This document shows, piece by piece, positions 1,768 through 42,161 of a stretch of DNA of 64,000 bases. Origin of the DNA: an uncultured Gammaproteobacteria bacterium (GTDB lineage: Bacteria; Patescibacteriota; Microgenomatia; UBA8517); the NCBI GenBank assembly GCA_964635715.1, contig CAZWNZ010000001.1, positions 408,616 through 472,615 on the forward strand, given 5' to 3'. Below the pieces are notes generated by a model that was not told the origin of the DNA, did no database searches, and saw nothing but the letters and a program-made list of their open reading frames with translations. Position 1 is the first letter of the stretch. The number at the start of each line of letters is the position of its first letter. The translations under genes were made by a program, and so were the position numbers.

Positions 1768-3486
1768 ATGTTTGACAAGCTCAATTTACCAAAACGATTT
1801 GCCTTCCCTTATAAGCCGGAAAATTTTTCCAGCAAAGAACGAAAAATTCTTCTAAACTTTTTTACAAATATAGACAAACCGGTTTTTGCAATCTATAACC
1901 TACCGCAAGAAGTTGTTGGAGCAATGTTTTCAAGATACTCAAGATCAGAAAAAAGCGTAAGACGTCTTTTTTTGGATGAGTTTTGGGATGCTTCTTTTAG
2001 TCAATATAAAGTTAGTCAGGACAAACTTAATAAGGCAAGGGAAAGAACAGACTCTTTCTATAAAAAAGTTTTCGCCGAGTTTGGCGACGATTCTGTCATT
2101 CAAATGGGGAGTATACATGTTGCATTTGAATTTGTATCGCAGATTGCAAGCAAAGCAATAGAAGATCAAAGAATCGGGGCGTCTTATATAGAGAAATCAA
2201 CTCGCTATGTTGATTTTGGCGGAAAGGTTGGGGGCCACTATCTTTATGTAGATATTCCGGAGATCTCCAAATCGAAATATTTTGAAGAATATAAATCCTG
2301 GAATAATTTTGCATTTGATGCCTATAACAAACACCTGGAAACTGCAGCGAAATTCTTGGAGAAAAAATATCCAATTGCCGATTTTGCCAACATTTCACAA
2401 TCTACCAAAAAGGAAGAAATCGAAATAATAAATAAAGCTTATAAAAGGGCCCTAAAAGCAAAAGCTTTTGATACTGTACGCATTTTTCTTCCCACGACTG
2501 TTGTTACAAACTTAGGTGGTCATTTTTCCGGACAGTCCGCTGAAAACATGATTAACAAAATGCTTATTTCACAGCACGCCGAAGTCCGGCTATTGGGGAA
2601 AATGGCCTATGAAGAATTAACAAAAGTCTCCCCAAATTTTTTGCAGAATATCGATTCAAAATACGGAGAGATTGCAAGAAATTACAGAAATGAAATCAAA
2701 GATCGTTCAAATAAAAATGCAAACAAATATTTAAAAAAGATTAAAAAAGAAGATGACCAAAAAGATGTTCGGGTAATAGATTTTGACCGCGACATGGATA
2801 TTAAAATTGCTTCTCAAATTCTTTATGCTGCTCAAACAAAAACATACTTGTCAAAAAAACAAGTTCTGGATTGGTGTAAGAGAAATCGGAAAGCACTTAC
2901 TGAAATAATTTTTTCATCAATTCCTGATAGGGGTAAGCCCGAAATAAATCGTCGCCACAAACTTCCAAGAGCATTTGAGCAGTCGGAAGTTGAAGTAGAG
3001 TTTTTTAAAGATTTTGGAATTTATCGGGATTTGCAAAGAAACCGTCTGTCTTCAACTGAGAGGTTGTTTTTAAACTCTGAGTTTTTAGAAATTCCGGAAG
3101 AATTTAAAGAATCGGGAATGGAGGAAGTTTTATCCGACTATATTAAACTTCATAGGATGACCAACGCATTAAACAAAAAATTAACAAAAGATAAAGATGC
3201 CGAAATCAGAAACGCGGCTGAGTATGTGACAATTTTGGGCAATAAACTGAGATTTAATATTAGAGCTAATATCAGGCAAATGGTTTTCTTTTCAGAACTT
3301 CGAACCATCGCCGGTGGGCATCCTTCTTACCGTAATGCAATGCAAAAGGCAGTTAACGAGTTAGTCAAAAAAGTTCCTAATTTGAAACCTTTATTCGCAA
3401 AAGTTGATTGGTGCAAGGATTATGGTTTAGGGAGAATGAAATCTGAGGTTAGAACACAGGAGGCTCTGGTGAAAATTAATAAATAA
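1768..3486 (+). CDS. thyX: Long (572 aa) flavin-dependent thymidylate synthase ThyX-like protein
   Basis: The second half carries RRHK-LPRAFEQ-S, matching the ThyX RHR-X7-S signature. It also has a ThyX-like C-terminal block: FFSELRTIAGGHPSYRNAMQKAV. It is flanked by dCMP deaminase, tmk, glyA and folD. The N-terminal half is divergent. Confidence 0.45.
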   Translation: MFDKLNLPKRFAFPYKPENFSSKERKILLNFFTNIDKPVFAIYNLPQEVVGAMFSRYSRSEKSVRRLFLDEFWDASFSQYKVSQDKLNKARERTDSFYKKVFAEFGDDSVIQMGSIHVAFEFVSQIASKAIEDQRIGASYIEKSTRYVDFGGKVGGHYLYVDIPEISKSKYFEEYKSWNNFAFDAYNKHLETAAKFLEKKYPIADFANISQSTKKEEIEIINKAYKRALKAKAFDTVRIFLPTTVVTNLGGHFSGQSAENMINKMLISQHAEVRLLGKMAYEELTKVSPNFLQNIDSKYGEIARNYRNEIKDRSNKNANKYLKKIKKEDDQKDVRVIDFDRDMDIKIASQILYAAQTKTYLSKKQVLDWCKRNRKALTEIIFSSIPDRGKPEINRRHKLPRAFEQSEVEVEFFKDFGIYRDLQRNRLSSTERLFLNSEFLEIPEEFKESGMEEVLSDYIKLHRMTNALNKKLTKDKDAEIRNAAEYVTILGNKLRFNIRANIRQMVFFSELRTIAGGHPSYRNAMQKAVNELVKKVPNLKPLFAKVDWCKDYGLGRMKSEVRTQEALVKINK

Positions 3487-5733: not shown

Positions 5734-6417
5734 TTATTTCTGGAGTTCCTGCCATTTCCTACTGACAATAAACTGATTACGGCGATCTTGAGGGGTCAAT
5801 GATTCTATAAAATTGGAAAAACTTTGTGCTTTTTCATACCTTGAGTTGAATTCTTTTTGAATTTGGACGATGCCGTTGGGCAGTGACTCGGAGTTGGTGT
5901 TGTCAATGTCAACGAGAAACTTTCGTGCATCATTAGGATGAGTTGATAGCTTTAATCTGATGACTTTGTAATTTTCAGGAGGGATTCTATCCGCTATCCA
6001 TTCATCACCGTCAAATCCGTTGTTGTATACACCCTGAAGCTCCGGCCTTATCTTAGGTTTTCTAATATCCAGTCCTTTTGTGTCAATTTCCAAAATTACT
6101 CCACAAACGGGAACTTCAACGAGATCTGTTATTACGCCTCTATCGTTAAATTTTTCAGTTTTTATAGATAATCCAGGAATATTAGTTGATGCATATGCAG
6201 TTTCAGACATAATTCTGTTTGTAGACATATATACACCAAGTTCATTTCCATCACCAATTTTAGTTGGATCGTCTTTGTTTACTCTACCTGGCATCAAAGG
6301 TTTATTGAAAAAATCAGGAGACAATTTACGGGGGTCAACACTAAAAGCACGATATAATACTTTGGGCCTTGTTTCAGTTTCCGAAATTTGTTTTCCAGCT
6401 TCAGGATTAACGTCCAT
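5734..6417 (-). CDS. Hypothetical protein (227 aa)
   Basis: A long ORF antisense-oriented between glyA and folD. No recognisable family. Its R...STN...E residue order is noted in findings. Confidence 0.5.
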   Translation of the reverse strand: MDVNPEAGKQISETETRPKVLYRAFSVDPRKLSPDFFNKPLMPGRVNKDDPTKIGDGNELGVYMSTNRIMSETAYASTNIPGLSIKTEKFNDRGVITDLVEVPVCGVILEIDTKGLDIRKPKIRPELQGVYNNGFDGDEWIADRIPPENYKVIRLKLSTHPNDARKFLVDIDNTNSESLPNGIVQIQKEFNSRYEKAQSFSNFIESLTPQDRRNQFIVSRKWQELQK

Positions 6418-8033: not shown

Positions 8034-8497
8034 TAAATAAAATGGCAAAAATCGATATTGAATTAATTAAAAAACTTCGTGAGGAAACTGGTGTAGCAAT
8101 TATCCGAATCCGTGAAGTTCTTGAGGAAGTAAAAGGAGACGAAAAGAAAGCTCTGGAAATTTTAAAGAAAGAAGGAATGGCTAAAGCAGAAAAACGAGAA
8201 GGGCGTTTAACGGGTGAGGGTAGAATTTTTGTCTATGCCCATCACACAGGTAAAGTTGTAGGAATTGTAGAACTTCTTTGTGAGACAGATTTTGTTGCCA
8301 GAACAGAACTTTTTGAAACCACCGGCCGTGATCTTGCTATGCAAGCGGCCAGTATGGGTACGGATGATTTTGAAAAACAGGATTTTGTAAAAGACTCCGG
8401 AAAGAAGATAATGGATCTTGTTAAAGAGCTTATTGCCAAGACTGGTGAAAATGTAAAGCTTGGCAGAGTTGAAAGAATAGAACTCGGGAATAAATAG
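8030..8497 (+). CDS. tsf: Elongation factor Ts (short form)
   Basis: The N-terminal UBA-like IKKLREETGVAIIRIREVLEE is present. It overlaps the rpsB stop. Confidence 0.85.
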   Translation: MINKMAKIDIELIKKLREETGVAIIRIREVLEEVKGDEKKALEILKKEGMAKAEKREGRLTGEGRIFVYAHHTGKVVGIVELLCETDFVARTELFETTGRDLAMQAASMGTDDFEKQDFVKDSGKKIMDLVKELIAKTGENVKLGRVERIELGNK

Positions 8498-10356: not shown

Positions 10357-11601
10357 ATGAAACAATCACAACTTTTCCCAAAGACAAGAAAAGAGGCACC
10401 GAAAGATGCTGAGAGTATCAACCACAAACTTCTCGTTAGGGGAGGATTTATGGATCAACTTATGTCCGGTAGCTGGACACTCCTTCCTTTGGGATGGAAA
10501 GTTATTACCAAAATCAATCAAATAATCCGCGAGGAAATTAATGCCGTTGGGGGACAGGAAATGTTAATGCCGCTCTTGCATCCGAAGGAAATTTGGAGTG
10601 AAACGGGTAGATGGGACAAGGCGGATGAGATTATGTATAAACTTTCTGATGCAAGGAAAAAAGAATATGTTCTTTCTTTTACGCACGAGGAAATCGTAAT
10701 GGATTTACTTCGCAAAAATATTAAAAGTTATCAGGATCTACCGGTTTCCATTTATCACTTCTCAACCAAATTCAGAAATGAACCGAGAGCTAAATCCGGA
10801 ATACTTAGGGGCAGGGAATTTATGATGAAGGATCTTTATTCGGCCCATGTAAACGAGCGCGATATGATGGACTATTACGAGAAGGTTAAGGGAGCTTATG
10901 TTAAAATCTTCAAGCGCCTTGGCTTTGATTTCAGAGTGGTGGAAGCTTCGGGCGGCGTATTTACCGATAAGCATACGCACGAATTTCAAGTAATTAACGC
11001 AAATGGAGAGGATACGATCTATTCATGCGATAAATGTGATTATGCCGTAAATAAGGAAATATTTGACATCGGAGATGATGCATCTGGAAAAGAACAAGAT
11101 TTGTGTCCAAAGTGCAAGAAAGGAAAAATAGAAAAATTAGATAAAACTGTGGAGGTCGGTAACATTTTTCCACTTGGAACTTGGTATTCAGAACGGATGA
11201 AAGTTTATTACACTGATGAAAAAGGTTTGAAAAAACCGGTTTGGTTTGCAAGTTATGGAATCGGCCCGACCCGTGTGATGGGTACTTGGGTGGAAGTTTC
11301 GCACGACGAGAACGGAATAATCTGGAGTAAGGAAATTTCACCTTTTGATGTTCACCTTGTCGAACTTCCCGGTGGACGCGGAGAAGAAATTTACAAGAAA
11401 TTAAAAAATGCCGGGGTTGATGTTCTTTGGGACGATAGAAAAGTTCCTGCTGGAGAAAAATTTGCTGATGCAGACCTTATCGGAATTCCAGTCAGGTTAG
11501 TTGTGTCGGAACGCAATGGAGACAAGATTGAATGGAAAGAAAGAGATTCTGAAAAGAGCGAACTTTTAAGTTTGGATGAAGTTATCACCAAGTTAACGTA
11601 A
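10357..11601 (+). CDS. proS: Prolyl-tRNA synthetase, minimal bacterial type lacking INS editing domain
   Basis: The N-terminus SQLFPKTRKEAPKDAE is ProS-like. Class II motif 2 is FRNEPRAKSGILRGREFMMKD. A C-terminal anticodon-binding domain is present. Only 414 aa, with a Cys4 insert (CDKCDY...CPKCKKG) where INS would be. Confidence 0.85.
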   Translation: MKQSQLFPKTRKEAPKDAESINHKLLVRGGFMDQLMSGSWTLLPLGWKVITKINQIIREEINAVGGQEMLMPLLHPKEIWSETGRWDKADEIMYKLSDARKKEYVLSFTHEEIVMDLLRKNIKSYQDLPVSIYHFSTKFRNEPRAKSGILRGREFMMKDLYSAHVNERDMMDYYEKVKGAYVKIFKRLGFDFRVVEASGGVFTDKHTHEFQVINANGEDTIYSCDKCDYAVNKEIFDIGDDASGKEQDLCPKCKKGKIEKLDKTVEVGNIFPLGTWYSERMKVYYTDEKGLKKPVWFASYGIGPTRVMGTWVEVSHDENGIIWSKEISPFDVHLVELPGGRGEEIYKKLKNAGVDVLWDDRKVPAGEKFADADLIGIPVRLVVSERNGDKIEWKERDSEKSELLSLDEVITKLT

Positions 11602-16378: not shown

Positions 16379-17833
16379 GTGGCTGATATTTATTTAACCA
16401 ATTCATTAACTAGGACAAAAGAAAAGTTTACTCCGTTAAAATCTAATGAAGTCGGCATGTACACTTGCGGTCCGACGGTTTACAACTATGCCACCATAGG
16501 GAATTTTAGAACTTATTTTAGTGCAGATATTTTACTACGTACTCTGAAATATAACGGTTATAAGGTTAACTACATAATGAATTTGACTGATGTAGGGCAT
16601 CTTACCGGAGATAATCTGGGAGATGCAGACACGGGAGAGGATAGGATGGTGAAAGAGGCGGAGAAGGAAAGGAAAAATGCATGGGATATTGCCAAAGAAT
16701 ATACAAATGCTTTTTTGACGGATTTTCATAAGCTTAATCTCGAAGATCCTGAGAACTTCGTTAAAGCAACAGACCACATAGAAGACCAGATTGATTTGGT
16801 TAAAAAGCTTGAAGGAAAAGGACTGACTTACAAAATTTCCGATGGAATATATTTTGACACAAAAACTTATGAGGAAAAAACTGGTTTTAGGTATGGTGAG
16901 CTTTCTAACCTTGATCAAATAAAAGAAGGGGCAAGAGTTGAAGTAAACCCTGAGAAAAAAAACCCAAGGGATTTTGCTTTATGGAAGTTCAGTTATAGGG
17001 ATGGAAGATCCTTCGACTCCGCCCAGGACGACGCTTCCCGTCGGCGCGACATGGAATGGGATTCGCCTTGGGGGGTTGGTTTCCCTGGTTGGCATATTGA
17101 GTGTTCTGCAATGAGTATGAAATATTTGGGCGAGACTTTCGATATTCATGTAGGCGGCGAAGATTTGAAGTCCACTCATCACCCAAATGAAATTGCTCAG
17201 AGCCAAGGGGCAACCGGTAAAAAATTTGTGGACTTTTGGATTCATGGTGCATTCTTAACCGTTGACGGGGGACGTATGGGTAAAAGTTTGGGAAATGCCT
17301 ATACAATTTCTGATTTAGAGAAAAAAGGATTTTCAGCATTAGACCTGAAATATTTTTATCTTTCAGGAAAATATAACGAACCAATTAATTTTACTTGGGA
17401 ATCACTGACTGCTGCTCAAAATGCTATGGATAAACTCAATTCTCAAATATCAAATCTTAGGTCTCAAAAAGGGCGAACTGTTCTTTCCGAAGAGAAGGAG
17501 ATAAAGATTGAAAATTATAGAAATGAATTTACGATAGCGATAAATGATGATTTAAATACACCGAAAGCCCTGGCTGTGCTTTGGTCAATGCTGGGGAGTA
17601 GTATTCCGTCAGAGGATAAATATGATTTAGCTATGAGTTTTGATGAAATATTAGGGTTGAATCTGGAATCTGGAATCTCGAATTTAGAGAATATAATCCC
17701 GGATAATGTAAAAGTTCTAATGGAAAAAAGGGAACAACTGAGGAAGGAAGGTAAATTTGAGGAAGCGGATAAAGTCCGAGATGAAATAACAAAAGCGGGG
17801 TATCAGGTATTTGATAAGCAAGTTAATAAGTGA
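16379..17833 (+). CDS. cysS: Cysteinyl-tRNA synthetase
   Basis: The class I HIGH region [17 protein letters not shown] is present. KMSKS-like MGKSLGN is present. The zinc site WHIECSAM is present. Confidence 0.9.
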
Positions 17834-30399: not shown

Positions 30400-31530
30400 A
30401 TGTCAAAGAAAGATGAAGAGATATTGTTGGCTGATGAACTCAGGAAACGGATAGATAATCTTAAGATAATTGATAAGCCTAGTCCATTTTTTAGGGAGGT
30501 TGCACGAACGGCTGAATGGATGGGTGAGATATTGTTATTTGAGCAACCACTTTTTGCCCTAGACCTTCAAAGTAAAAAGCGAGATAAAGAATCATTGCAG
30601 ATATTGAAGGATATGCACTCCAAAGGCAGAGTCATTTGGTCTGCTATAAAAAAAATACCAATTACTCTTGAAAAGACACGGCCAGAAGTTCAACAATCGC
30701 TTGCGAGTTTGCATCAGTATTACGAAATGCCACACCCTCAGTACGGAATCGGGCTATATCACAGTTTGAGGATAGTGGTTGAGTATCTTATTTCTAGTAA
30801 CAATTCAAAAGGGCTTGAGAAATTTGTAGACAGGAATAACCCCGTTAAGTATCCGAATTTTCGAGGTGAAATGTATGATCTACTAATTGCTTACAATAAG
30901 AAACAGGATTTAATAAAAAAAGAACTCGCCCTTAGTCTTTGGGGTGCTTGGGACAATCTTAAGTATGTAAGCTACCTTGCAGGAATAGATAACGACTATC
31001 CACAACTTGAAGATTGGGCTAAGGTTTTTACAAAGGATGAATACTTTGTACATCTTCACAAAGTATCAGATTACTTATTTGATTGGCTGGTGTTAGGTAA
31101 AAAAGGTGACAAATTAAGTGGTGACCCACTGCTCGAATCTGCTGTTTGGGATAAGAAATTTAATTTTGAAATTGACCCTAACACCGAAATTGATAATGCA
31201 AATTTTGGACAGTATGGAGTAGTTAGGTTTTACCCAGGTAAATCTCCAACTAAAGTGGAAGGTGATAGTAAACTAAACGCAAATCAATTATTTCTTAAAA
31301 AATTGTTTGAAGCTGGCGAGAAAGGTGTATCTAGAAAAGAGCTGGCCGAGTATATGGATATAAGAGAGAATGACATTAAAGCCTATGTTAACGGGGCCGA
31401 TAAAGTTTTTCGAAATAGTTACAAAAAACAAAAAGTTAAAGCAAATATTTACGTATCTGCAGATAGCGAGATAATTAGGTTGATTGTTATACCTGTCGAA
31501 AGTGAGAATAATCAAAATACCGAAGCTTAG
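30400..31530 (+). CDS. Hypothetical protein with C-terminal winged-helix-like region
   Basis: 376 aa. The C-terminus is LFLKKLFEAGEKGVSRKELAEYMDIREND. Confidence 0.45.
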   Translation: MSKKDEEILLADELRKRIDNLKIIDKPSPFFREVARTAEWMGEILLFEQPLFALDLQSKKRDKESLQILKDMHSKGRVIWSAIKKIPITLEKTRPEVQQSLASLHQYYEMPHPQYGIGLYHSLRIVVEYLISSNNSKGLEKFVDRNNPVKYPNFRGEMYDLLIAYNKKQDLIKKELALSLWGAWDNLKYVSYLAGIDNDYPQLEDWAKVFTKDEYFVHLHKVSDYLFDWLVLGKKGDKLSGDPLLESAVWDKKFNFEIDPNTEIDNANFGQYGVVRFYPGKSPTKVEGDSKLNANQLFLKKLFEAGEKGVSRKELAEYMDIRENDIKAYVNGADKVFRNSYKKQKVKANIYVSADSEIIRLIVIPVESENNQNTEA

Positions 31531-31566
31531 CTAATCTTCTTTTTATCTTATAACTAATCTTCTCGC

Positions 31567-31839
31567 TTGTTTTATGCTTCAGGCAAGATGTTAAATGTTA
31601 ATGAAGATAGATGGAAGAGCAAAGATTTTTATTTGAGTTGCGTTATTCGTGCCTCTGGGTTTGAACTCATAACCCTTGAAAGGAAAGAACACGACTTCAG
31701 CGTTTTTGTTTTTGACATTTCTCCTCAAAAGGCAGAAGAAATAATTTCTCTTCACTGGTCTAAACAGTTGAAACTTCCCACCAAGGATTTAGTTGAAGCA
31801 ATCAATGAATTAAGAACAAGGTTAAAAAGTGGAGTCTAA
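31567..31839 (+). CDS. Hypothetical small protein
   Basis: A 90-aa ORF. Confidence 0.35.
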   Translation: MFYASGKMLNVNEDRWKSKDFYLSCVIRASGFELITLERKEHDFSVFVFDISPQKAEEIISLHWSKQLKLPTKDLVEAINELRTRLKSGV

Positions 31840-32038
31840 TATGGAAAATTTAAATGTTATCGAAAAAGCATTGGAACTTTATGACGAAGTCGACAATTTG
31901 GCTAAGGACTGGCTAATAAAAAGTTGGAAACTAAAGGACGAGGATAAGGAGATTGCAAGATTGTATTACCAAAAGGCTTGTAAAAAGCGATTAGAACTAG
32001 CGAAAAGATTGGAGGGATTATGCAACCAGACAAAATAA
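31829..32038 (+). CDS. Hypothetical small protein
   Basis: A 69-aa helical ORF that overlaps its neighbours. Confidence 0.3.
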   Translation: MESNMENLNVIEKALELYDEVDNLAKDWLIKSWKLKDEDKEIARLYYQKACKKRLELAKRLEGLCNQTK

Positions 32039-33351
32039 CATTTGATCCAGCAAAAGATATTAAGGATTCGATTTATGAGATTACTAAAGTTGAAAAAGAA
32101 TGGGAAGAAATAACCTCGGAAGACATACTAAAAGTATTAGGTCAGACAATAAAGAAAGATGATTTTAATAAACTCCTAGTCTTTCTGTGCCAGCTTTTAG
32201 CATATTCGGAAAGTAGTCAGATAAATCTTTCTTTTAATGCTCCAAGCAGTAGTGGCAAAAGCTATTTGGCTTTGGAAATCGCAGACTTATTTCCCAAAGA
32301 AGATGTCCTTAAACTTGGTTATGCTAGCCCGACTTCCTTTTTCCATACAACCAGCGAATATTCCAAAGAAAAGAATGGCTATGTAGTGAATCTTGAAAGG
32401 AAAATTGTGGTTTTTCTTGATATGCCACACTCATTACTTTTACAGCATTTAAGACCGCTTCTAAGCCATGATGAAAAGGAAATATTAGTTAAGATTACTG
32501 ACAAATCAGCCAAGGGGGGAATAAGAACAAAAGACATTTTTATTAGAGGTTATCCTGCAGTTCTTTTTTGTTCGGCAAACTTTAACTTAGATGAACAAGA
32601 GTTAACAAGGTTCATCCTTCTTAGCCCAGAAACCAACCAAGAAAAGATAAGAGAAGCAATTTACGAGCGGGTAAAAAAGGAAGCAGATAAAGAAGGGTAT
32701 TTTAAACTCTTAAACGAAAACCCAGACAGACAAGCCTTGAAACAGAGAATTGTTGATGTCAGAGATTCTCTTGTTAGTAAAATTGATTTAGGTAACCCAG
32801 AAAAATTACTTCAGATGTTCTATGAACGCAATGAGATTCTTAAACCTAGACATTCAAGGGACATTCAACGAATCGCTTCCTTGGCCAAGGCATTTGCCTT
32901 ACTTAACCTTTGGACCCGAGAAAGAGTGGGGGATGCAATTAAGACAAATGAAAAGGACCTTGAAAATGCTTTTAAGATTTGGGACGAGATAAGTATTGCA
33001 CAAGATTTAGGGGTTTCTCCTTATATTCTTAATCTCTACAAAGAAGTTATTGTCCCCGTTTATGAAGAAAAAGGTAAAGCAGGACTAACCAGACAGGAGG
33101 TTTTGAAAAAACATTTTGAGGTTTATGGAAGACATATAGCCGATTGGCAGTTGAGGCAAGAAATAGTGCCAATAATGAAGACTTCTGGACTTATTTCTGA
33201 AGAACAGGACCCGCTTGATAAAAGAAAACTTCTTATTTACCCCCTAGTACAGCTCACTACATCTGGAGCTCAAGAAATAGTGAGTGAGAGGGGGGAGGAG
33301 GGTGTAACAGAAGCTCAAATCGAGGATATTTTTGGAGTAAAACCTATATGA
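32020..33351 (+). CDS. P-loop NTPase, possible primase/helicase-like replication protein
   Basis: A Walker A-like NAPSSSGKSYLALEIADL is present. Walker B-like VVFLDM is present. The C-terminal winged-helix region resembles the phage/plasmid primase C-terminal NTPase. Confidence 0.45.
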   Translation: MQPDKITFDPAKDIKDSIYEITKVEKEWEEITSEDILKVLGQTIKKDDFNKLLVFLCQLLAYSESSQINLSFNAPSSSGKSYLALEIADLFPKEDVLKLGYASPTSFFHTTSEYSKEKNGYVVNLERKIVVFLDMPHSLLLQHLRPLLSHDEKEILVKITDKSAKGGIRTKDIFIRGYPAVLFCSANFNLDEQELTRFILLSPETNQEKIREAIYERVKKEADKEGYFKLLNENPDRQALKQRIVDVRDSLVSKIDLGNPEKLLQMFYERNEILKPRHSRDIQRIASLAKAFALLNLWTRERVGDAIKTNEKDLENAFKIWDEISIAQDLGVSPYILNLYKEVIVPVYEEKGKAGLTRQEVLKKHFEVYGRHIADWQLRQEIVPIMKTSGLISEEQDPLDKRKLLIYPLVQLTTSGAQEIVSERGEEGVTEAQIEDIFGVKPI

Positions 33352-33557
33352 ACAAACCACTTTTACCAATAATTACATTTAAGGATATTGTTTCGGATGG
33401 AAAGAGGGTTGAAACTGCCTATTTTAGGATATTTGAGATAGCGAGGAAAAATATTTTGATGAAAAGGATGTTGACAAATCCAATGTCGCAGAAGTACACT
33501 GAAATACATAATGAAAAATCAATATCTAACAATCGAGGAGGTGGCCAAAATGCTTAG
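33348..33557 (+). CDS. Hypothetical small protein
   Basis: A 69-aa ORF. It partly overlaps the better-supported Xis-like ORF in another frame. Confidence 0.25.
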   Translation: MNKPLLPIITFKDIVSDGKRVETAYFRIFEIARKNILMKRMLTNPMSQKYTEIHNEKSISNNRGGGQNA

Positions 33558-33678
33558 AGTTAATAAAAGAACTGTATATAGATTGGCCGTAAAAGGAGAA
33601 ATTCCAGCTTTCAGGTTTGGCAGGTCTTGGAGGATAGATTCTAATAAGTTGGATGGAATATTTAAGAGAAAGAAATGA
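33511..33678 (+). CDS. Excisionase/AlpA-like HTH DNA-binding protein (55 aa), not in ORF track
   Basis: Translation gives MKNQYLTIEEVAKMLRVNKRTVYRLAVKGEIPAFRFGRSWRIDSNKLDGIFKRKK, a classic Xis/MerR-type HTH_17 fold. Its stop overlaps the recombinase start (ATGA). Confidence 0.6.
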   Translation: MKNQYLTIEEVAKMLRVNKRTVYRLAVKGEIPAFRFGRSWRIDSNKLDGIFKRKK

Positions 33679-35327
33679 AAAGCGATAATCAAATACAGGA
33701 ACCGATGAATGTTGCTCTTTATGCAAGGGTTTCAACTGGTAGGCAGGAGAATGAACAGACCATTGAATCCCAATTAGATGAAGTTAAGAGAAAAATAGCG
33801 GATGATGGTAATACTTTATTACCTCAAAACATCTTTATAGACGATGGATGGAGCGGAGAACTTCTAGCAAGGCCTTCACTTGATAACTTAAGGGATGCAG
33901 TTAAAGATAATAGTTTTGAAGCAGTTTATGTTTATGATAGAGGTAGGCTTTCCAGGACCTTCTTTCACCAGGAGCTTGTTATAAGTGAACTAAGCGATTT
34001 AGGAATCCAATTTATTTCACTTCATGATGTTAAAGCCACAACTCCTGAGGAGAAAGTCTTGCAATCAATGCAGGGGGTATTCCACGAATACGAAAGAATT
34101 AAGATTGCAGAGAGAATGAGAAGGGGAAAAATGTATCACGCAAAGGAAGGGAAAATAATAAATGGTCAGGCTTTGTATGGTTACTCTTATAAGAAAAGGG
34201 AGGATGGAAATGTAGACTACCTTATAAACGATGACGAGGCGGGAGTAGTAAGAAAGATTTGGAATTGGTTTGGAAATGATAATCTAGCCGTTCATACAAT
34301 CCAGAGGAGATTATTTGACCTTAAAATTATGCCCCAGAAGGGTAAATCTGATTTTTGGTCCAAAAGTGTTATTACCAGACTTCTTAAACAGGAAACCTAT
34401 GTGACAGGTAAGGCTTTTTATAATAAATCGGAAGCGGTTGTAGCCAAACACCCGATGAACAATGGTAAGTATAAGAAAGTTAAGAAAAGTAGTAGGAAAG
34501 TAAAGTCTCGTGAAGACTGGATTCCTTTTGATGTCCCCAGAATAATTACAGATTATTCACTTTATGAGAAGGTTCAAAAGAAACTTGAATATAACAGAGT
34601 CTATGCAAACAAAAAATCTAAATACGACTACCTACTTTCTGGTTTAATTTATTGTGGTTGTGGGAACAAAAGAGTTGGGGACGGTTGCAGCAAAAACGGG
34701 CACTTTTATTACAGGTGCATTGATAGGATTAGAAGCGGGGTATACGAGAGGAAATGCAAATCAAGTGGTATAAACGCTGCGATTTTGGATGGTCTGCTCT
34801 GGAAAGAACTAAGAAAAAAGCTTTTTAGTTACCCAATAATGAAGAAATATGCCGAAAAGTGGATTAAATCAGTATCGGTTTTAAGTAGTGAAGACTTGCT
34901 TGAGAAGCGAAGACTTAATGAAATGATAGTAAAGACTACAGAAGAAGAAAATCGTTATTCAAAGGCTTACGGAGTTGGAACTTTAGAATTCGACCAATTC
35001 CAGAATTTAATGAAAGACGCCAAAAAGCGAAGAGTTTCTTATCAAAAACAATTATCAGAATTGGCCAATAAATCGGCAGAAGTTAATGTTCAGATAGAGG
35101 TCGATGAGCTATTAGCGGAAGTGATGAGTGTGGTTAAGGATATAGATTTTAGTGATAAATTTAGGGTAATTCGAGATATAATAGACAAAGTTATCGTAAC
35201 AGAAAGGAGCGGTGCAGAAATATGTGCGCATTTACCATTACCAGTCACAATCACCGAAAAGTTGGGATATGAGCCTGAGCGTAGGGATTGTTGGCTTGCC
35301 AAATGTAGGCAAGAGCACTCTTTTTAA
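33675..35327 (+). CDS. Large serine recombinase (serine integrase)
   Basis: The N-terminal resolvase catalytic domain is VALYARVSTGRQENEQTIESQ. A recombinase domain and a zinc-ribbon domain follow (CGCGNKRVGDGC...YYRC). It has a coiled-coil C-terminus. The 3' end spans attR and overlaps ychF by 59 nt. Confidence 0.85.
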   Translation: MKSDNQIQEPMNVALYARVSTGRQENEQTIESQLDEVKRKIADDGNTLLPQNIFIDDGWSGELLARPSLDNLRDAVKDNSFEAVYVYDRGRLSRTFFHQELVISELSDLGIQFISLHDVKATTPEEKVLQSMQGVFHEYERIKIAERMRRGKMYHAKEGKIINGQALYGYSYKKREDGNVDYLINDDEAGVVRKIWNWFGNDNLAVHTIQRRLFDLKIMPQKGKSDFWSKSVITRLLKQETYVTGKAFYNKSEAVVAKHPMNNGKYKKVKKSSRKVKSREDWIPFDVPRIITDYSLYEKVQKKLEYNRVYANKKSKYDYLLSGLIYCGCGNKRVGDGCSKNGHFYYRCIDRIRSGVYERKCKSSGINAAILDGLLWKELRKKLFSYPIMKKYAEKWIKSVSVLSSEDLLEKRRLNEMIVKTTEEENRYSKAYGVGTLEFDQFQNLMKDAKKRRVSYQKQLSELANKSAEVNVQIEVDELLAEVMSVVKDIDFSDKFRVIRDIIDKVIVTERSGAEICAHLPLPVTITEKLGYEPERRDCWLAKCRQEHSF

Positions 35328-37520: not shown

Positions 37521-38753
37521 ATGTCAAGAAGAATTAATTTCGTTAAAGCCAGAAAAATTGTCTTGTCGGCACTTGTTTTGGCAGGCGTTTTTGTCGGTGG
37601 ATATTACCTCGGTATCAACGGCTATAAAGTAGAAGTTAACAAGGCTTTGACAGTAACAATCAACAGACGAACCCCCGACGATAAAAATGTTGACATGAGT
37701 CTTTTTTGGCAAGTTTGGGATCTTATTAGCGAAAAATACTACGACAAATCAAAACTTGTTCCTTCGCAGATGATTTATGGAGCAATTGAAGGAATGGTAT
37801 CTTCGGTCGGTGATCCTTACACAACATTTCTTATTCCTTCACAGAACAAAGTAGTTAACGAGGATTTAAATGGATCATTCGGCGGAGTCGGTATAGAAAT
37901 TGGTTATAAAGACGGTTACTTGGCAGTAATAGCACCGCTTCCCGGGACACCGGCAGACAGAGCCGGGGTTAAAGCCGGGGACTATATTGTAAAAATTACA
38001 GACACAATAAAAGGTGTTGATCTGGACAGTTCTACTATTAGCACAAACGAAGCTGTAACCTACATCAGGGGTGTTGCGGGAACAAAAGTCACATTAACAC
38101 TTATGAGAGATGGTGTAGACGAACCGATTGTGGTTGATCTTGTTAGGGAGAAGATAGATGTTCCTTCGGTTACGTTATCTTGGGTAGGTGAAGGTTCGGA
38201 TGTGGCAAATATTGAAATAAGTAAATTTGGATCAGAAACAAAGGGCGAGTGGGATAGTGTTGTGAGCGAAATATTAAGTAACGAAAACGTTAAAGGAATA
38301 ATTATTGATCTTAGAAACAATCCTGGAGGATATATGCAGGCAGCAATAGATTTAGCTTCTGACTTTGTTTTGAATGGAACAACAATAGTAATTCAGGATA
38401 GTGGCAACAATGATAAAGAAGAATACAAGTCAATGACTTTACCTCGGCTTGAAGACTATCAAACAGTGGTATTAATCAATGAAGGCAGCGCTTCAGCATC
38501 TGAAATTCTGGCAGGTGCATTAAGAGATCAGGTAGGAATAAAATTAGTAGGTGATAAAAGTTTTGGCAAGGGAACAATTCAGGAACCAGTTGATATGGTC
38601 GGAGGGAGCGGGGTACACATAACTACTGCCAAATGGCTGACACCCAAAGGGACGTGGGTTCATGATTCAGGGTTAGTTCCCGATCTGGAAATTGCCAACC
38701 CGGACGATACTGAGGTAGATGAGCAGCTGGAAGCTGCGATTGAACTTTTTTAA
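37521..38753 (+). CDS. Carboxyl-terminal processing protease (S41 family) with PDZ domain
   Basis: An N-terminal TM is present. A PDZ domain is present ([11 protein letters not shown]). The S41 motifs [10 protein letters not shown] and [13 protein letters not shown] are present. Confidence 0.85.
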
Positions 38754-39448
38754 GAAGAAATATTTTTGGTAAGTTCGATTATACGGTCAAGATCTCCATC
38801 AACTATTACTTCAAGCTTCCCCCAGCTTTTGCCAATTCTGTGATCGGTAACCCTGTCTTGAGGAAAATTGTAAGTGCGGATTTTTTCGGATCTCATTCCA
38901 CGGCCGATTACACTTCTGTATCCGGCCATTGTTTTTTCTTTCTCGGCTTCCTGACGCTCCCAAAGGCGTGATCTCAAGAGAGAGAGGGCTATTTGTCTGT
39001 TTTGTTCCTGGAAGCGTTCCTCGCGGGCTTCTACGACGATACCGGTGGGTTTATGAACAAGTCTCACGGCAGTGGAAACTTTATTAACATTTTGGCCTCC
39101 GTGGCCTCCAGCCCGGGTAAATTGCCATTCCAAATCATTTTGGTTGATTTGGATTTCATCTTCTTTAACTTCCGGTAAAACTACAATAGTAGCAGTGGAA
39201 GTGTGTATTCTGCCTCTTTTTTCAGTAACCGGAACCCTTTGGACTCGGTGAACTCCCGACTCGTTTTTTAGAAGATCAAAAACTTGTGGGCCGGATATCC
39301 TGATTGTTTTTTCATCGATCAAAGCAACTTTCAAGTTTTTCTTTGTAGCATAGCGGATATACATACGTAGGAGATCGGATCCCCAAAGTTTGGCTTCATC
39401 ACCACCCGTGGCACCACGAATTTCAATAAACGCTGTTTGATTATCCAT
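38750..39448 (-). CDS. prfA: Peptide chain release factor 1-like, lacking N-terminal domain 1
   Basis: A PVT tripeptide (RF1 type) is present, then [14 protein letters not shown]. The GGQ motif is present ([19 protein letters not shown]). It starts at the position equivalent to E. coli RF1 residue ~112. There is an in-frame stop 21 nt upstream. Confidence 0.8.
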
Positions 39449-39965: not shown

Positions 39966-40880
39966 TTAGTTTTTAGTTATTAATTTAAATTTGCATTCGG
40001 CAAGCAGGACACCTAGCACAATGAGCACGGAGCCGATAATGAAAGGCAAGTCCACCTTTTCCTTTAGCCAAAGGACGGAAAGGGGAGTACCAAATACCGG
40101 GTATAAATAACCGATCAAGTTTACTTCACCAACCTCTATTGTTTTTTCGGCCTTATGCCAAAGGTAGTATGCCAAGGTTCCTGAAAGGATGGCCATATAA
40201 ATTACGCCCAAATGATAGGAAAAAGGGACAGCGGTAATCACTCTCAAATTTGAGCTTATTAGTTGGGAGATGCTTAAAGGGAGAATTGTTACGAATCCAA
40301 TAATAAATGAAAAATTGGATGCAAAACTGGGATCCACCTCTTTTCTTAAAATAAGTTTAGTGAGAATTGCCGTAATCGTTCCTATAATAAGCGAAGCAAA
40401 TATTAAAAGATTTCCTTCGAGTCCTGCAAATTGAATATTCCCATCCAACACAGGGCCCACAATTGTTATAAAAGTTCCCGCAAGAGCTATAAGAATACCG
40501 ACACTTTCCCTTTTTGTAATATGCTCCTTAAGAAAGAATACACCCGCAATGGCAATTAAAATCGGAGACATGGCGGAAATTAAATTTGAATTGATAGATG
40601 TTGTTTTATCCATGCCAAAGAACAGCAAGCCTAAAGAAACTGTAGTTAAAAGAAAGCCGTTTAAAATGGTAACAAAAAGCACTTTCTTATTTTTGGGAAA
40701 CTTGATCCCCGTAATTGCAAAAATTACAACGCCGGCGAGAGCCGAAAGAAAAAGCCGATATGTTAAAAATACGGCAGGGGAAAATCCTCCTAAAGTATAT
40801 TTGATAATCGGAGCAGCAACACCCCAAATAATTGCAACAAGAAGTATTTCAATGTAGGCGCGTTTTCGGGCAGGATTCAT
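39966..40880 (-). CDS. EamA/DMT-family transporter
   Basis: 10 TM helices. Two EamA repeats. Confidence 0.75.
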   Translation of the reverse strand: MNPARKRAYIEILLVAIIWGVAAPIIKYTLGGFSPAVFLTYRLFLSALAGVVIFAITGIKFPKNKKVLFVTILNGFLLTTVSLGLLFFGMDKTTSINSNLISAMSPILIAIAGVFFLKEHITKRESVGILIALAGTFITIVGPVLDGNIQFAGLEGNLLIFASLIIGTITAILTKLILRKEVDPSFASNFSFIIGFVTILPLSISQLISSNLRVITAVPFSYHLGVIYMAILSGTLAYYLWHKAEKTIEVGEVNLIGYLYPVFGTPLSVLWLKEKVDLPFIIGSVLIVLGVLLAECKFKLITKN

Positions 40881-40935: not shown

Positions 40936-40960
40936 CACTTGCACCCGCGAGGTGCAAGTG
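40936..40960 (-). terminator. Hairpin downstream of hisS
   Basis: CACTTGCACC-cgcga-GGTGCAAGTG is a perfect 10-bp stem. It lies 8 nt after the hisS stop. Confidence 0.45.
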
Positions 40961-40967
40961 TGGAACT

Positions 40968-41852
40968 TTAAGGTAGAAGGTCGATAATGCGGTCAATTCC
41001 GAATGAAAATCCGACTGCAGGAATATCGCGCCCTGCAAACATTCCGATCAAGTTGTCATAGCGACCGCCGGCTCCGATCGTAAGCTTTTCGGTTTTGTTC
41101 AATTTAAGTTCATAAACGGTTGAAGTGTAGTAATCCAAACCTCGGGCGAGATATGGATTAAAAACAAAATCGGTTCCTTCTTTAAATCCTTTATTTTTAA
41201 GTTCTGCAAAAATTTGAGTTAATCTTTCGGTTTTGGGTTCTTTTGAAAGTTTTTCCAAAATATTTTTTCCTACAAGTTTTTCTACTTCCCCTTGTCCGAT
41301 CTTATCAATTTTGTCGATAATTCTAACTTGATCCTGTGTTATGCCTAGTTTATCAAATATCTTTCGGTCATTGATTTGAATGTATGCATCGTTTAGGTCG
41401 ATCGCTCTGACTCCTTCAACTGCCGCAGCAATAACTTGTACATCTTCTTTAAAATCACTTGAACCAACAGTATCAAGATCGAATTGAGTAAATTCTCTGC
41501 GTCTGCCTCTTTGCGGATTGTCCGCACGGAAAGATTGGCCTATTTGATATCTTGAAAATGTCGGTTTTAGAAGGCCTAAGTTATTGGCAATAAAACGGGC
41601 TAGGGGAACGGTGAGATCGTATCTTAGTGCAAGCTTTCGGCCTCCTTTATCCTCGAATGTATAAACCAATTTTTCATCCTCGCCGTATTTACCCAATAAG
41701 GTTTCTGCAAACTCTACAGTTGGGGTTTCGAGCGGGACAAAGCCGTATTTTTCAAGCACGGGGACAATAGCGTTTATCATAAAACGCCTCTTTTTGGTTT
41801 CCTCCGGCATAATGTCACCGAACCCTTTTGGTGTAACTGGTCCTTTTTGCAT
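40968..41852 (-). CDS. hisS: Histidyl-tRNA synthetase catalytic core lacking the anticodon-binding domain (294 aa)
   Basis: The HisRS motifs PKGFGD and LRYDLTVPLARF are present. Motif 2 is FRADNPQRGRRREFTQFDLD. Motif 3 is GAGGRYDNL. The ORF ends right after GFSFGIDRIIDL with no downstream continuation. Confidence 0.75.
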   Translation of the reverse strand: MQKGPVTPKGFGDIMPEETKKRRFMINAIVPVLEKYGFVPLETPTVEFAETLLGKYGEDEKLVYTFEDKGGRKLALRYDLTVPLARFIANNLGLLKPTFSRYQIGQSFRADNPQRGRRREFTQFDLDTVGSSDFKEDVQVIAAAVEGVRAIDLNDAYIQINDRKIFDKLGITQDQVRIIDKIDKIGQGEVEKLVGKNILEKLSKEPKTERLTQIFAELKNKGFKEGTDFVFNPYLARGLDYYTSTVYELKLNKTEKLTIGAGGRYDNLIGMFAGRDIPAVGFSFGIDRIIDLLP

Positions 41853-42161
41853 ATATTTAGTTTACTATGAACATCCTCCTTCGCCAAGGCTTCGAGGGTT
41901 GCACGTTCTTGATGGACAAAAAAAGGAACCTTTCGGTTCCCTGTATTATCGAACACTTAAGTTTTACGCTTCAAGTAAGCGGCCCGTATTTGGCGGGCTC
42001 CGTTTCCGATTATTCAGAAATCCCATCGCGTGACTGATGGTTTAACGGATTTATTTAAAACCTCCCTTTCGTTGTCCCGAAATATATCGGGACAAGGAGC
42101 GAGAGGTTTTCTAACAGATACAAAAGAGTATTATAGCGCTATATTTTTATATGTCAACTGG
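41853..42161 (-). promoter_or_regulatory. ~300-nt structured 5' leader of hisS with intrinsic terminator/attenuator
   Basis: No ORF is present. On the minus strand it has nested hairpins (GTCCCGAtatattTCGGGAC) and a 12-bp perfect palindrome, TATAGCGCTATA. GGAACC-gaaa-GGTTCC plus U7 lies 66 nt before the start codon. Confidence 0.4.
41918..41940 (-). terminator. Leader terminator hairpin (GGAACCGAAAGGTTCC + U7) upstream of hisS
   Basis: The plus strand reads aaaaaaaGGAACCtttcGGTTCC. On the minus strand this gives a GAAA-tetraloop hairpin followed by seven U. Confidence 0.5.

Follow-up and report, generated by a model that had tools for sequence, protein, structure and literature searches.

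In this study, we analyze a 64,000-nucleotide stretch of DNA, hereafter called the window, from an uncultured bacterium of the Microgenomatia (GenBank assembly GCA_964635715.1, contig CAZWNZ010000001.1, positions 408,616 to 472,615 of the forward strand). On its minus strand, at positions 40968..41852, the window carries a gene for a histidyl-tRNA synthetase (HisRS) homolog, here named hisS-short, whose product comprises motifs 1-3 and the HisA and HisB elements, while the linker and the anticodon-binding domain (ABD; HGTP_anticodon, PF03129) are absent. Since its catalytic and acceptor-binding residues are kept, the gene is orthologous by position to full-length hisS, a His-specific T-box-like leader is associated with it and tRNA-His of two relatives has a G-1:C73 pair, hisS-short probably encodes the housekeeping HisRS of this cell, with tRNA-His being recognized through its acceptor end alone. 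Recognition by acceptor-stem and G-1 contacts only was one of two explanations put forward in an earlier, sequence-only reading of the window; it has now become the best-supported one, while the interpretation given in that reading, taken as a whole, is borne out in part.

A HisRS catalytic core that ends after motif 3

The hisS-short gene starts with an ATG at position 41852, ends with a TAA stop and specifies a protein of 294 amino acids (aa). The sequence-only reading had noted that this protein contains all HisRS signature motifs and stops at 294 aa, and both statements hold: motif 1 is accompanied by motif 2 (FRADNPQRGRRREFTQFD), HisA (LARGLDYYT), HisB (GGRYD) and motif 3 (GFSFGIDRI), and the C-terminus (...DRIIDLLP*; GFSFGIDRIIDLLP) is reached 6 residues past the motif 3 arginine. 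Pfam identifies tRNA-synt_His (PF13393; E 2.5e-41) but does not match HGTP_anticodon anywhere in the 294-aa protein, although the same model does detect this domain in the prolyl-tRNA synthetase (ProRS) of the window and in the full-length hisS product of a related locus (L051; three-digit L and four-digit P numbers denote loci and proteins, respectively). The NCBIfam hisS equivalog model TIGR00442 is passed marginally (287.1 bits versus a cutoff of 286.75), because about a quarter of the profile, corresponding to the C-terminal domain, has nothing to match.

For a residue-level comparison, we used the E. coli HisRS sequence, which was confirmed to be 100% identical to PDB 1kmm_A. The motif 2 residues R113, Q118, R121 and R123 of the E. 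coli enzyme align with R109, Q114, R117 and R119 of the short protein, Q127 with Q123 and E131 with D127. In the HisA loop (RGLDYY), R259 corresponds to R237 and Y263/Y264 to Y241/Y242; the GGRYD sequence of HisB aligns with G262-D266, and R311 of motif 3 aligns with R288. In a 56-sequence alignment with short and full-length forms, these active-site positions show no or almost no variation. Moreover, a G70-G71 dipeptide, which is invariant within the short family, aligns with Gly72'-Gly73' of the Thermus thermophilus enzyme, the dipeptide that builds the cross-dimer G-1 pocket of the HisRS-tRNA complex (PMC4357726).

The AlphaFold (AF2) model of the short protein has a mean predicted local distance difference test (pLDDT) score of 92.2 and a predicted TM (pTM) score of 0.90. 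In a Foldseek search, the top 50 PDB matches were all genuine HisRS, with query-normalized TM scores of 0.72-0.87, and none of the 50 was HisZ. Sequence matches in the PDB reached 8.5e-50 for HisRS chains, compared with E values of 1e-19 and weaker for HisZ chains; the protein belongs to the HisRS branch with the human cytoplasmic and Elizabethkingia enzymes as best matches in the PDB. As judged from the sequence and the model, the protein retains the full class II catalytic fold, motifs 1-3, both His-specific loops and the helical insertion domain (approximately residues 164-220).

The region downstream of hisS-short leaves no room for a missing domain. The sequence-only reading had listed only a hairpin terminator and an EamA gene there. 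Both elements are present: a GC-rich, 11-bp hairpin directly follows the stop codon (40936..40960, minus strand), and a gene for an EamA-family transporter (39966..40880, minus strand), the constant downstream neighbor in short and full-length hisS lineages, starts 87 nt past the stop. The hairpin, however, has a T-poor tail and would at best be a weak terminator. Since the spacer is only 87 nt long, a hidden domain of ~100 aa cannot fit. In a tblastn search with six ABDs from the nearest full-length relatives, the sole match in the 64-kb window was the ProRS domain (11320-11595; E 0.017). The spacer length and the negative tblastn result together rule out a C-terminal domain concealed by a frameshift.

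At its 5' end, hisS-short is preceded by a -10-like hexamer (TAAACT; 41859..41864, minus strand; read by eye) that lies 6 nt ahead of the start codon, which lacks a Shine-Dalgarno sequence at normal distance. Of the short hisS genes at the positions compared (L002-L020), most likewise show a TAnnnT hexamer 6-8 nt ahead of the ATG, frequently preceded by TG, and are without a Shine-Dalgarno sequence. This arrangement suggests that the hisS-short mRNA is leaderless and transcribed from its own promoter.

Conservation of the short form among relatives

The short architecture is shared by a large group of proteins. Among the best 120 clusters from a large protein database (comprising NCBI, JGI, ENA and Logan assemblies), which are 73-100% identical to the window protein, all are 269-322 aa in length, and PF03129 is found in none. 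A library clustered at 50% identity contains, among its listed matches, only P0121 (308 aa) and one fragment (P0122) from the short family, whereas the next relatives are HisRS of 392-436 aa with 44-50% identity, in which the match ends near residue 290-325 and the ABD follows. A scan of one genome per species returned at least 548 relatives of the short protein, the best 80 loci of which, each with 10 kb of flank, were used for the locus comparisons. The named records among these 80 loci belong, by their titles, to the Microgenomates (Woese-, Curtiss-, Davies- and Gottesmanbacteria). Complete short open reading frames (ORFs) of 276-331 aa are present in 77 of them, with the stop codon 2-15 residues past motif 3 and identities going down to 50%; in the remainder, one ORF is cut by a contig end, and an ABD is encoded only in L051 (407 aa) and L080.

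In a neighbor-joining tree of the catalytic domain, the short forms constitute one clade with the full-length protein of L051 at its base, and ordinary full-length enzymes like P0125 fall outside. This topology, which was obtained without bootstrap support and hence does not separate one loss from several, fits a single ancient domain loss or a few of them, after which the short form would have been kept by purifying selection.

The short gene occupies the hisS locus

In the window, hisS-short is part of the gene order DnaB, Lactamase_B, a 336-aa protein, hisS-short, EamA, L31, RF1, CtpB, S18, SSB, S6 and YchF. The extended version of this order around the short gene recurs in ten independent contigs. 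At four loci (L051, L083, L208 and L209), this slot is instead taken by an ABD-bearing hisS, within hisS-EamA-L31-RF1 and between DnaB/Lactamase_B on one side and CtpB-S18-SSB-S6-YchF on the other. As each slot in these loci holds one hisS homolog, the short gene represents the positional counterpart of the housekeeping hisS rather than an additional copy next to it. No separate bona fide hisS was detected in the window or within 10 kb of 78 short-gene loci.

Some of the full-length genes in this group encode a variant HisRS with altered His-pocket motifs, in which RGLDYY is replaced by RSFSYS and GGGRYD by GGERYD. Genes of this type are found in L208 (9746-10927), L209 (9589-10675) and L210 as well as, downstream of the leader described below, in L109, L115, L127, L135 and L167. 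The copies behind the His leader are intact and encode proteins of 403-426 aa.

A His-specific T-box-like RNA upstream of hisS

The region upstream of hisS-short contains a structured RNA element (41918-42157, minus strand). It begins with a sigma-70-type promoter (TTGACA-16-TATAAT; 42130..42157, minus strand) that matches the consensus at 12 of 12 positions and would drive transcription of two successive structures. The first, hp1 (42061..42106, minus strand), is a long hairpin (CCUCUCGCUCCUUG...GGGAGG, then U4) with a conserved 5' strand. The second is a T-box-like core (41961..42060, minus strand), detected with 84 bits (E 5e-19) by a covariance model; it combines a basal helix with a hairpin whose invariant loop is GUCACG (CAC at 42032-42030), a helix whose loop reads CCAAAUA and another helix that terminates in GCGUAAAA. 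The RNA ends with an intrinsic terminator (AGGGAACC-GAAA-GGUUCCUU, then U7; 41923..41942, minus strand), which sits where relatives carry the T-box-like sequence UGGGACCGCGG, and UGG is absent at this place in the window. Compared with shuffled sequence, the whole upstream stretch has a much stronger tendency to fold (z = -5.9).

The covariance model, comprising an 81-position core, was used to search 1.36 Mb of related loci and retrieved 15 copies, each of them upstream of hisS and in the same orientation as this gene, including six outside the training set. Besides the window, leader copies occur in L007 (8394-8640), L016 (7876-8154), L035 (5539-5814), L046, L052, L055, L058, L060 and L070. 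Compensatory changes are seen in 14 of the 16 base pairs, with a covariation of 0.62 versus 0.16 in shuffles, in an alignment that was fitted to the model. The GUCACG loop, which corresponds to the His codon CAC plus a purine, is invariant in all 15 hisS-linked copies. In seven hisS loci, the core continues into GGAUGGGACCGCGG and a U-run; this sequence equals the T-box core UGGNACCGCG with N = G, a base complementary to C73.

To avoid a bias towards hisS proximity, we also performed an RNA-first search of metagenomes with a 20-21-nt T-box-like motif, which yielded at least 126 instances in at least 120 metagenome stretches, in which GGAUGGGACCGCGG, with its G opposite C73, is present as well. 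GTCACG lies within 230 nt upstream in 119 of the 126 listed instances, and the other seven are either cut by a contig end (five) or chance matches (two). A tRNA-His(GUG) gene follows within 300 nt in 33 of 116 listed instances, and no other tRNA was found downstream on this strand; hisS homologs lie downstream in 32 of the 75 listed instances with at least 2.5 kb of sequence, and a hisG homolog is the first gene in ~40. Three kinds of hisS genes follow the leader: short without an ABD, canonical full-length, and full-length with RSFSYS and GGERYD.

Judging from these sequence features, the leader is His-specific and most simply viewed as a T-box that has diverged strongly and whose Stem I is very short. 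A shortened Stem I is known from T-boxes of the ileS type in Actinobacteria (Sherwood et al., 2015; reviewed in PMC7583486). Like these actinobacterial ileS T-boxes, the leader has a codon-bearing loop (CAC plus purine) and helices where Stem II and Stem IIA/B would lie. The F-box position is occupied by GCGUAAAA or CCGUAAAA, and UGGGACCGCG, with a fourth base complementary to C73, is present in relatives. Unlike in these T-boxes, however, it is a terminal hairpin loop that bears the codon, the T-box-like sequence lies inside a hairpin that precedes a U-run, and hp1 is an additional element. Alternative pairings were inspected by eye; the position of the U-run directly after the T-box-like hairpin is atypical. 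At the Rfam gathering threshold, the whole window contains only a tRNA-Leu match, and the Rfam T-box model RF00230 does not match the window leader at E values up to 10.

In relatives, hp1 has the form CCUCUCGYUCCUUG...GGGAGG plus U6-8 and, as in the window, is present in one copy per locus. Its U-tail abuts G-1 of tRNA-His in L016 (~8090-8154) and L035 (~5748-5814). It is positioned just upstream of hisS in L004, L006, L009 and L012-L014, and in several loci it is the sole element between a strong promoter and hisS. The 5' strand of hp1 could pair with GGGAGG inside the T-box-like element. A search of hp1 for a His codon in its internal loop or for complementarity to tRNA-His revealed nothing convincing.

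As a separate observation, the hisG gene that comes first behind the His leader on many CPR contigs (L100, 801-1682; L104, 555-1529; L052; L060; ~40 other metagenome loci) mostly encodes the HisG_C-containing long form. A gene for an M15 or M20 peptidase often comes next, and other histidine biosynthesis genes were not seen nearby. A lone hisG is puzzling in organisms thought to be unable to make histidine.

Recognition of tRNA-His and comparison with known systems

The closest counterpart of the short protein is Ncat HisRS, an engineered E. coli fragment that also consists of the catalytic and insertion domains without the ABD (Augustine and Francklyn, 1997, Biochemistry 36:3473). The short protein ends at a point equivalent to the end of Ncat, just past the motif 3 helix, but it is natural, conserved over hundreds of species, apparently the housekeeping copy and equipped with a shorter insertion domain. 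With canonical class IIa HisRS (1kmm, 4rdx, 4phc), it has in common the fold, the motifs, the active site and the Gly-Gly G-1 pocket, whereas the linker of 9-14 residues and the HGTP_anticodon domain of ~100 aa are lacking.

The ABD contacts G34, U35 and G36 in the T. thermophilus HisRS complex (PMC4357726). The same article describes the anticodon as a weak identity element for HisRS and microhelices as HisRS substrates (citing Francklyn and Schimmel, 1990, and Augustine and Francklyn, 1997); it also states that the catalytic domain alone holds the elements for adenylate synthesis and aminoacylation of tRNA-His (citing Augustine and Francklyn, 1997). A check of the tRNA-His genes for the G-1:C73 pair, as proposed in the sequence-only reading, gave a positive result in two relatives that have the short gene; in the window, tRNA-Leu is the only tRNA, and no tRNA-His is found. 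In L016 (8155-8227) and L035 (5815-5889), the tRNA-His gene lies 1.6-1.8 kb upstream of the short gene and specifies the anticodon GUG, a genome-encoded G-1 and C73.

We propose that hisS-short encodes the working HisRS of the organism, an enzyme that has lost its linker and C-terminal ABD. This short enzyme would form histidyl-adenylate and then transfer histidine to A76 of tRNA-His, which it would select only by the acceptor end, namely by the additional G-1:C73 pair together with its 5' phosphate. Both would be held by the arginines and the glutamine of the motif-2 loop, the insertion domain and the Gly-Gly pocket of the partner subunit in the homodimer, and the GUG anticodon would never be read. 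In relatives, hisS is part of operons headed by the His-specific T-box-like RNA; in the window, the RNA is present with its presumed acceptor-sensing UGG gone, and hisS probably has its own leaderless promoter as well.

Alternative explanations

A protein without its usual C-terminal domain could be an artefact of assembly or sequencing or the product of a decaying pseudogene, and broken hisS genes do arise in metagenome assemblies, as seen for L082, L084, L085 and L208. Yet, the stop position of the short form recurs in independent assemblies of many projects, including closed chromosomes (closed or near-closed genomes with the short gene are CP011214.1, CP066686.1, CP066693.1, CP066688.1, OY970314.1, JBEKNE010000001.1 and DAITMO010000001.1), its sequence is strongly conserved, and the gap to EamA, 87 nt in the window, shrinks to only 5 nt in L211-L220, so that this reading is effectively refuted. 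A different idea, also raised in the sequence-only reading, is that the short protein is a catalytic subunit whose anticodon reading is supplied in trans by a separate ABD or another tRNA-binding protein. Such a partner would account for retained specificity and affinity, and the same group does contain ABD-bearing RSFSYS/GGERYD genes, some of which are disrupted N-terminally with an open ABD reading frame (P0407, L209/L210). When the six ABDs were compared by tblastn with the 80 loci and their 10-kb flanks, however, only L051 and L080 matched; thus, no ABD is encoded within 10 kb of the 78 short-gene loci, nor in the window beyond ProRS. An ABD profile search yielded only short proteins as candidates, which, in all five loci inspected, proved to be pieces of disrupted or incompletely assembled full-length genes. 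Three of them (P0286/L082, P0280/L084 and P0351/L085) derive from full-length genes broken in the catalytic domain by masked N-runs or frameshifts, P0296/L083 from a gene cut by a contig end, and P0381/L086 from a catalytic domain-ABD pair split by 16 nt beside a CHU_C-domain gene in an apparently unrelated bacterium. The RSFSYS/GGERYD family (identified in a search seeded with P0282) was rejected as an ABD donor as well, because its members occupy the short-gene slot in different genomes and occur intact behind the His leader, which makes them look like alternatives to the short gene and not like its partners. The contigs carrying P0097, listed to assess the co-occurrence of short and ABD genes, include none of the assembly in which the RSFSYS gene is disrupted and hence do not bear on this question. 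With no support from the window, the flanks or the five candidates, provision of the domain in trans appears quite improbable. Independently of this question, masked N-runs in stored contigs (L082, ~5990; L085, 857-866) yield spurious stand-alone domain proteins (P0286 and P0351), a caveat for split-gene searches in general.

A further possibility is that the short protein serves as a HisZ-like partner of HisG, or as another non-translational paralog, and that the genuine HisRS is encoded elsewhere in the genome. HisZ (TIGR00443; PDB 1z7m, 3od1, 5m8h) is likewise a HisRS catalytic-domain homolog without an ABD (~300-390 aa) and can adjoin hisG; it acts as the regulatory subunit of the short-form ATP phosphoribosyltransferase (Sissler et al., 1999). 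The short protein gives secondary matches to HisZ models, the leader found upstream of hisS also precedes the ~40 hisG genes on metagenome contigs, and in L052 hisG is the immediate upstream neighbor of the short gene, while in L060 it lies two genes upstream. Against this idea, every HisZ model stays far under its cutoff (the best, TIGR00443, with 149 bits versus 271.65, and ~20 others with 27-117 bits versus 224-833), while the hisS model is passed, and the structural neighbors of the protein are HisRS only, with HisZ chains being much weaker sequence matches; a comparison with HisZ had been asked for in the sequence-only reading. In addition, the catalytic and acceptor-binding residues are invariant across sequences that are only 50% identical, which argues against a purely regulatory subunit, as it would not need them, and the gene is the positional ortholog of full-length hisS. 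The sequence-only reading had also held that histidine biosynthesis genes, if present, would make the protein HisZ. This test is not clean. In the window, hisG was not found by tblastn, and no his gene was detected among ~44 Pfam-scanned ORFs (some of which are without any match). In L052 and L060, hisG does accompany the short gene, but it also accompanies full-length hisS (L122, L155), and most of these HisG proteins are long forms with HisG_C. Long-form HisG needs no HisZ. Altogether, we consider a HisZ-like role unlikely.

Several observations nevertheless weigh against the view that hisS-short encodes an acceptor-reading housekeeping HisRS. The hisG gene of L052 (664-1515), directly upstream of the short gene, encodes a protein of 283 aa in which HisG_C was not detected; together with the long-form gene of L060 (8488-9405), it creates a neighborhood reminiscent of a HisG-HisZ arrangement. 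Closely syntenic genomes carry, in the slot of the window gene, an ABD-bearing RSFSYS-type hisS that is only 39% identical to the short gene. The presence of such a different gene in the same slot means that the history of the locus is not simply vertical, and these sequences indicate that replacement at the hisS locus has occurred. In L209/L210, the RSFSYS gene has an internal deletion of ~40 residues over motif 2, although a 277-aa C-terminal ORF that includes the ABD is open; the respective genome may need another HisRS. A deleted RSFSYS gene occupies the slot in assembly GCA_000994565.1. Likewise, a second HisRS elsewhere in the genome is possible for the short-gene carriers, given that the search for a second HisRS or an ABD covered the window and the 10-kb flanks of 78 loci. 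As for the leader, the window reads AGGGAACCGAAAGG instead of the T-box sequence UGGN-ACCGCG, so that the UGG presumed to sense the tRNA 3' end is lost, and in relatives the Rfam T-box model reaches 17.7 bits in L035 (E 0.04, with the whole element aligned) and 10.9 bits in L007, compared with a gathering score of 93. Finally, the activity of the engineered E. coli catalytic fragment is reportedly far below that of the complete enzyme (Augustine and Francklyn, 1997), and the fragment is reportedly a monomer, whereas a partner subunit is needed for the G-1 pocket.

Broader implications

The defining parts of class IIa synthetases are a catalytic core and an HGTP anticodon-binding domain, and HisRS is the textbook case of acceptor-end (G-1) dominance in tRNA identity. 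On balance, we lean towards the wider proposal that a Microgenomates lineage of hundreds of species (Woese-, Curtiss-, Davies- and Gottesmanbacteria) decodes histidine with a minimal, anticodon-blind HisRS, that tRNA-His identity in these organisms lies wholly in G-1:C73 in vivo, and that the gene belongs to a previously undescribed, strongly diverged His T-box-like regulon, with tRNA-His and an apparently lone hisG likewise under its control. If true, a natural housekeeping HisRS without an ABD would be the in vivo counterpart of the minihelix and Ncat experiments and a natural system for studying how much of a synthetase specific charging requires, with a bearing on ideas about an acceptor-stem 'operational code' and on genome reduction in candidate phyla radiation (CPR) bacteria. 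In the searchable literature, which is incomplete, we found no report of an ABD-less HisRS in CPR bacteria or of T-boxes in Patescibacteria, and no description of the His T-box-like leader. The main interest of the finding will be for synthetase specialists, and it is greater in combination with the T-box-like His regulon. There is also a practical aspect: annotation pipelines and marker sets based on TIGR00442 operate at the cutoff for this protein and may miss short HisRS or mislabel them as HisZ.

Other translation genes and features of the window

The sequence-only reading had linked the short HisRS to a systematic loss of domains from the translation machinery. Domains are indeed missing from two other proteins: release factor 1 (RF1; 38750-39448, minus strand; 232 aa) matches only positions 98-194 of the PCRF profile and lacks its N-terminal domain, and ProRS (10357-11601, plus strand; 414 aa) has a class II core and HGTP_anticodon but neither the INS editing domain nor the C-terminal zinc domain. 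A common trend is, however, not borne out. Since ProRS retains its ABD and the cysteinyl-tRNA synthetase (CysRS; 16379-17833, plus strand) its DALR and anticodon-binding parts, ABD loss is specific to HisRS here. Moreover, RF1 lengths in relatives are 230-234, 296-313 or 342 aa, and the 232-aa form also lies beside ABD-bearing hisS (L083, L208), indicating that the losses in RF1 and HisRS are not coupled.

Other parts of the window show peculiarities of their own. The ThyX protein (Thy1 family; 1768-3486, plus strand) has 572 aa, about twice the usual length, with its Thy1 match in two stretches within residues 84-290, and could be the result of a fusion, a duplication or an insertion. Near YchF, a large serine recombinase with Resolvase, Recombinase and Zn_ribbon_recom domains (33675-35327) is preceded by ORFs of 376 and 443 aa essentially without Pfam matches, and this region (30400-35327, plus strand) may represent an integrated mobile element. 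Between 24 and 30 kb, the GC content is lower (0.34), and the GC skew is negative at 26-30 kb.

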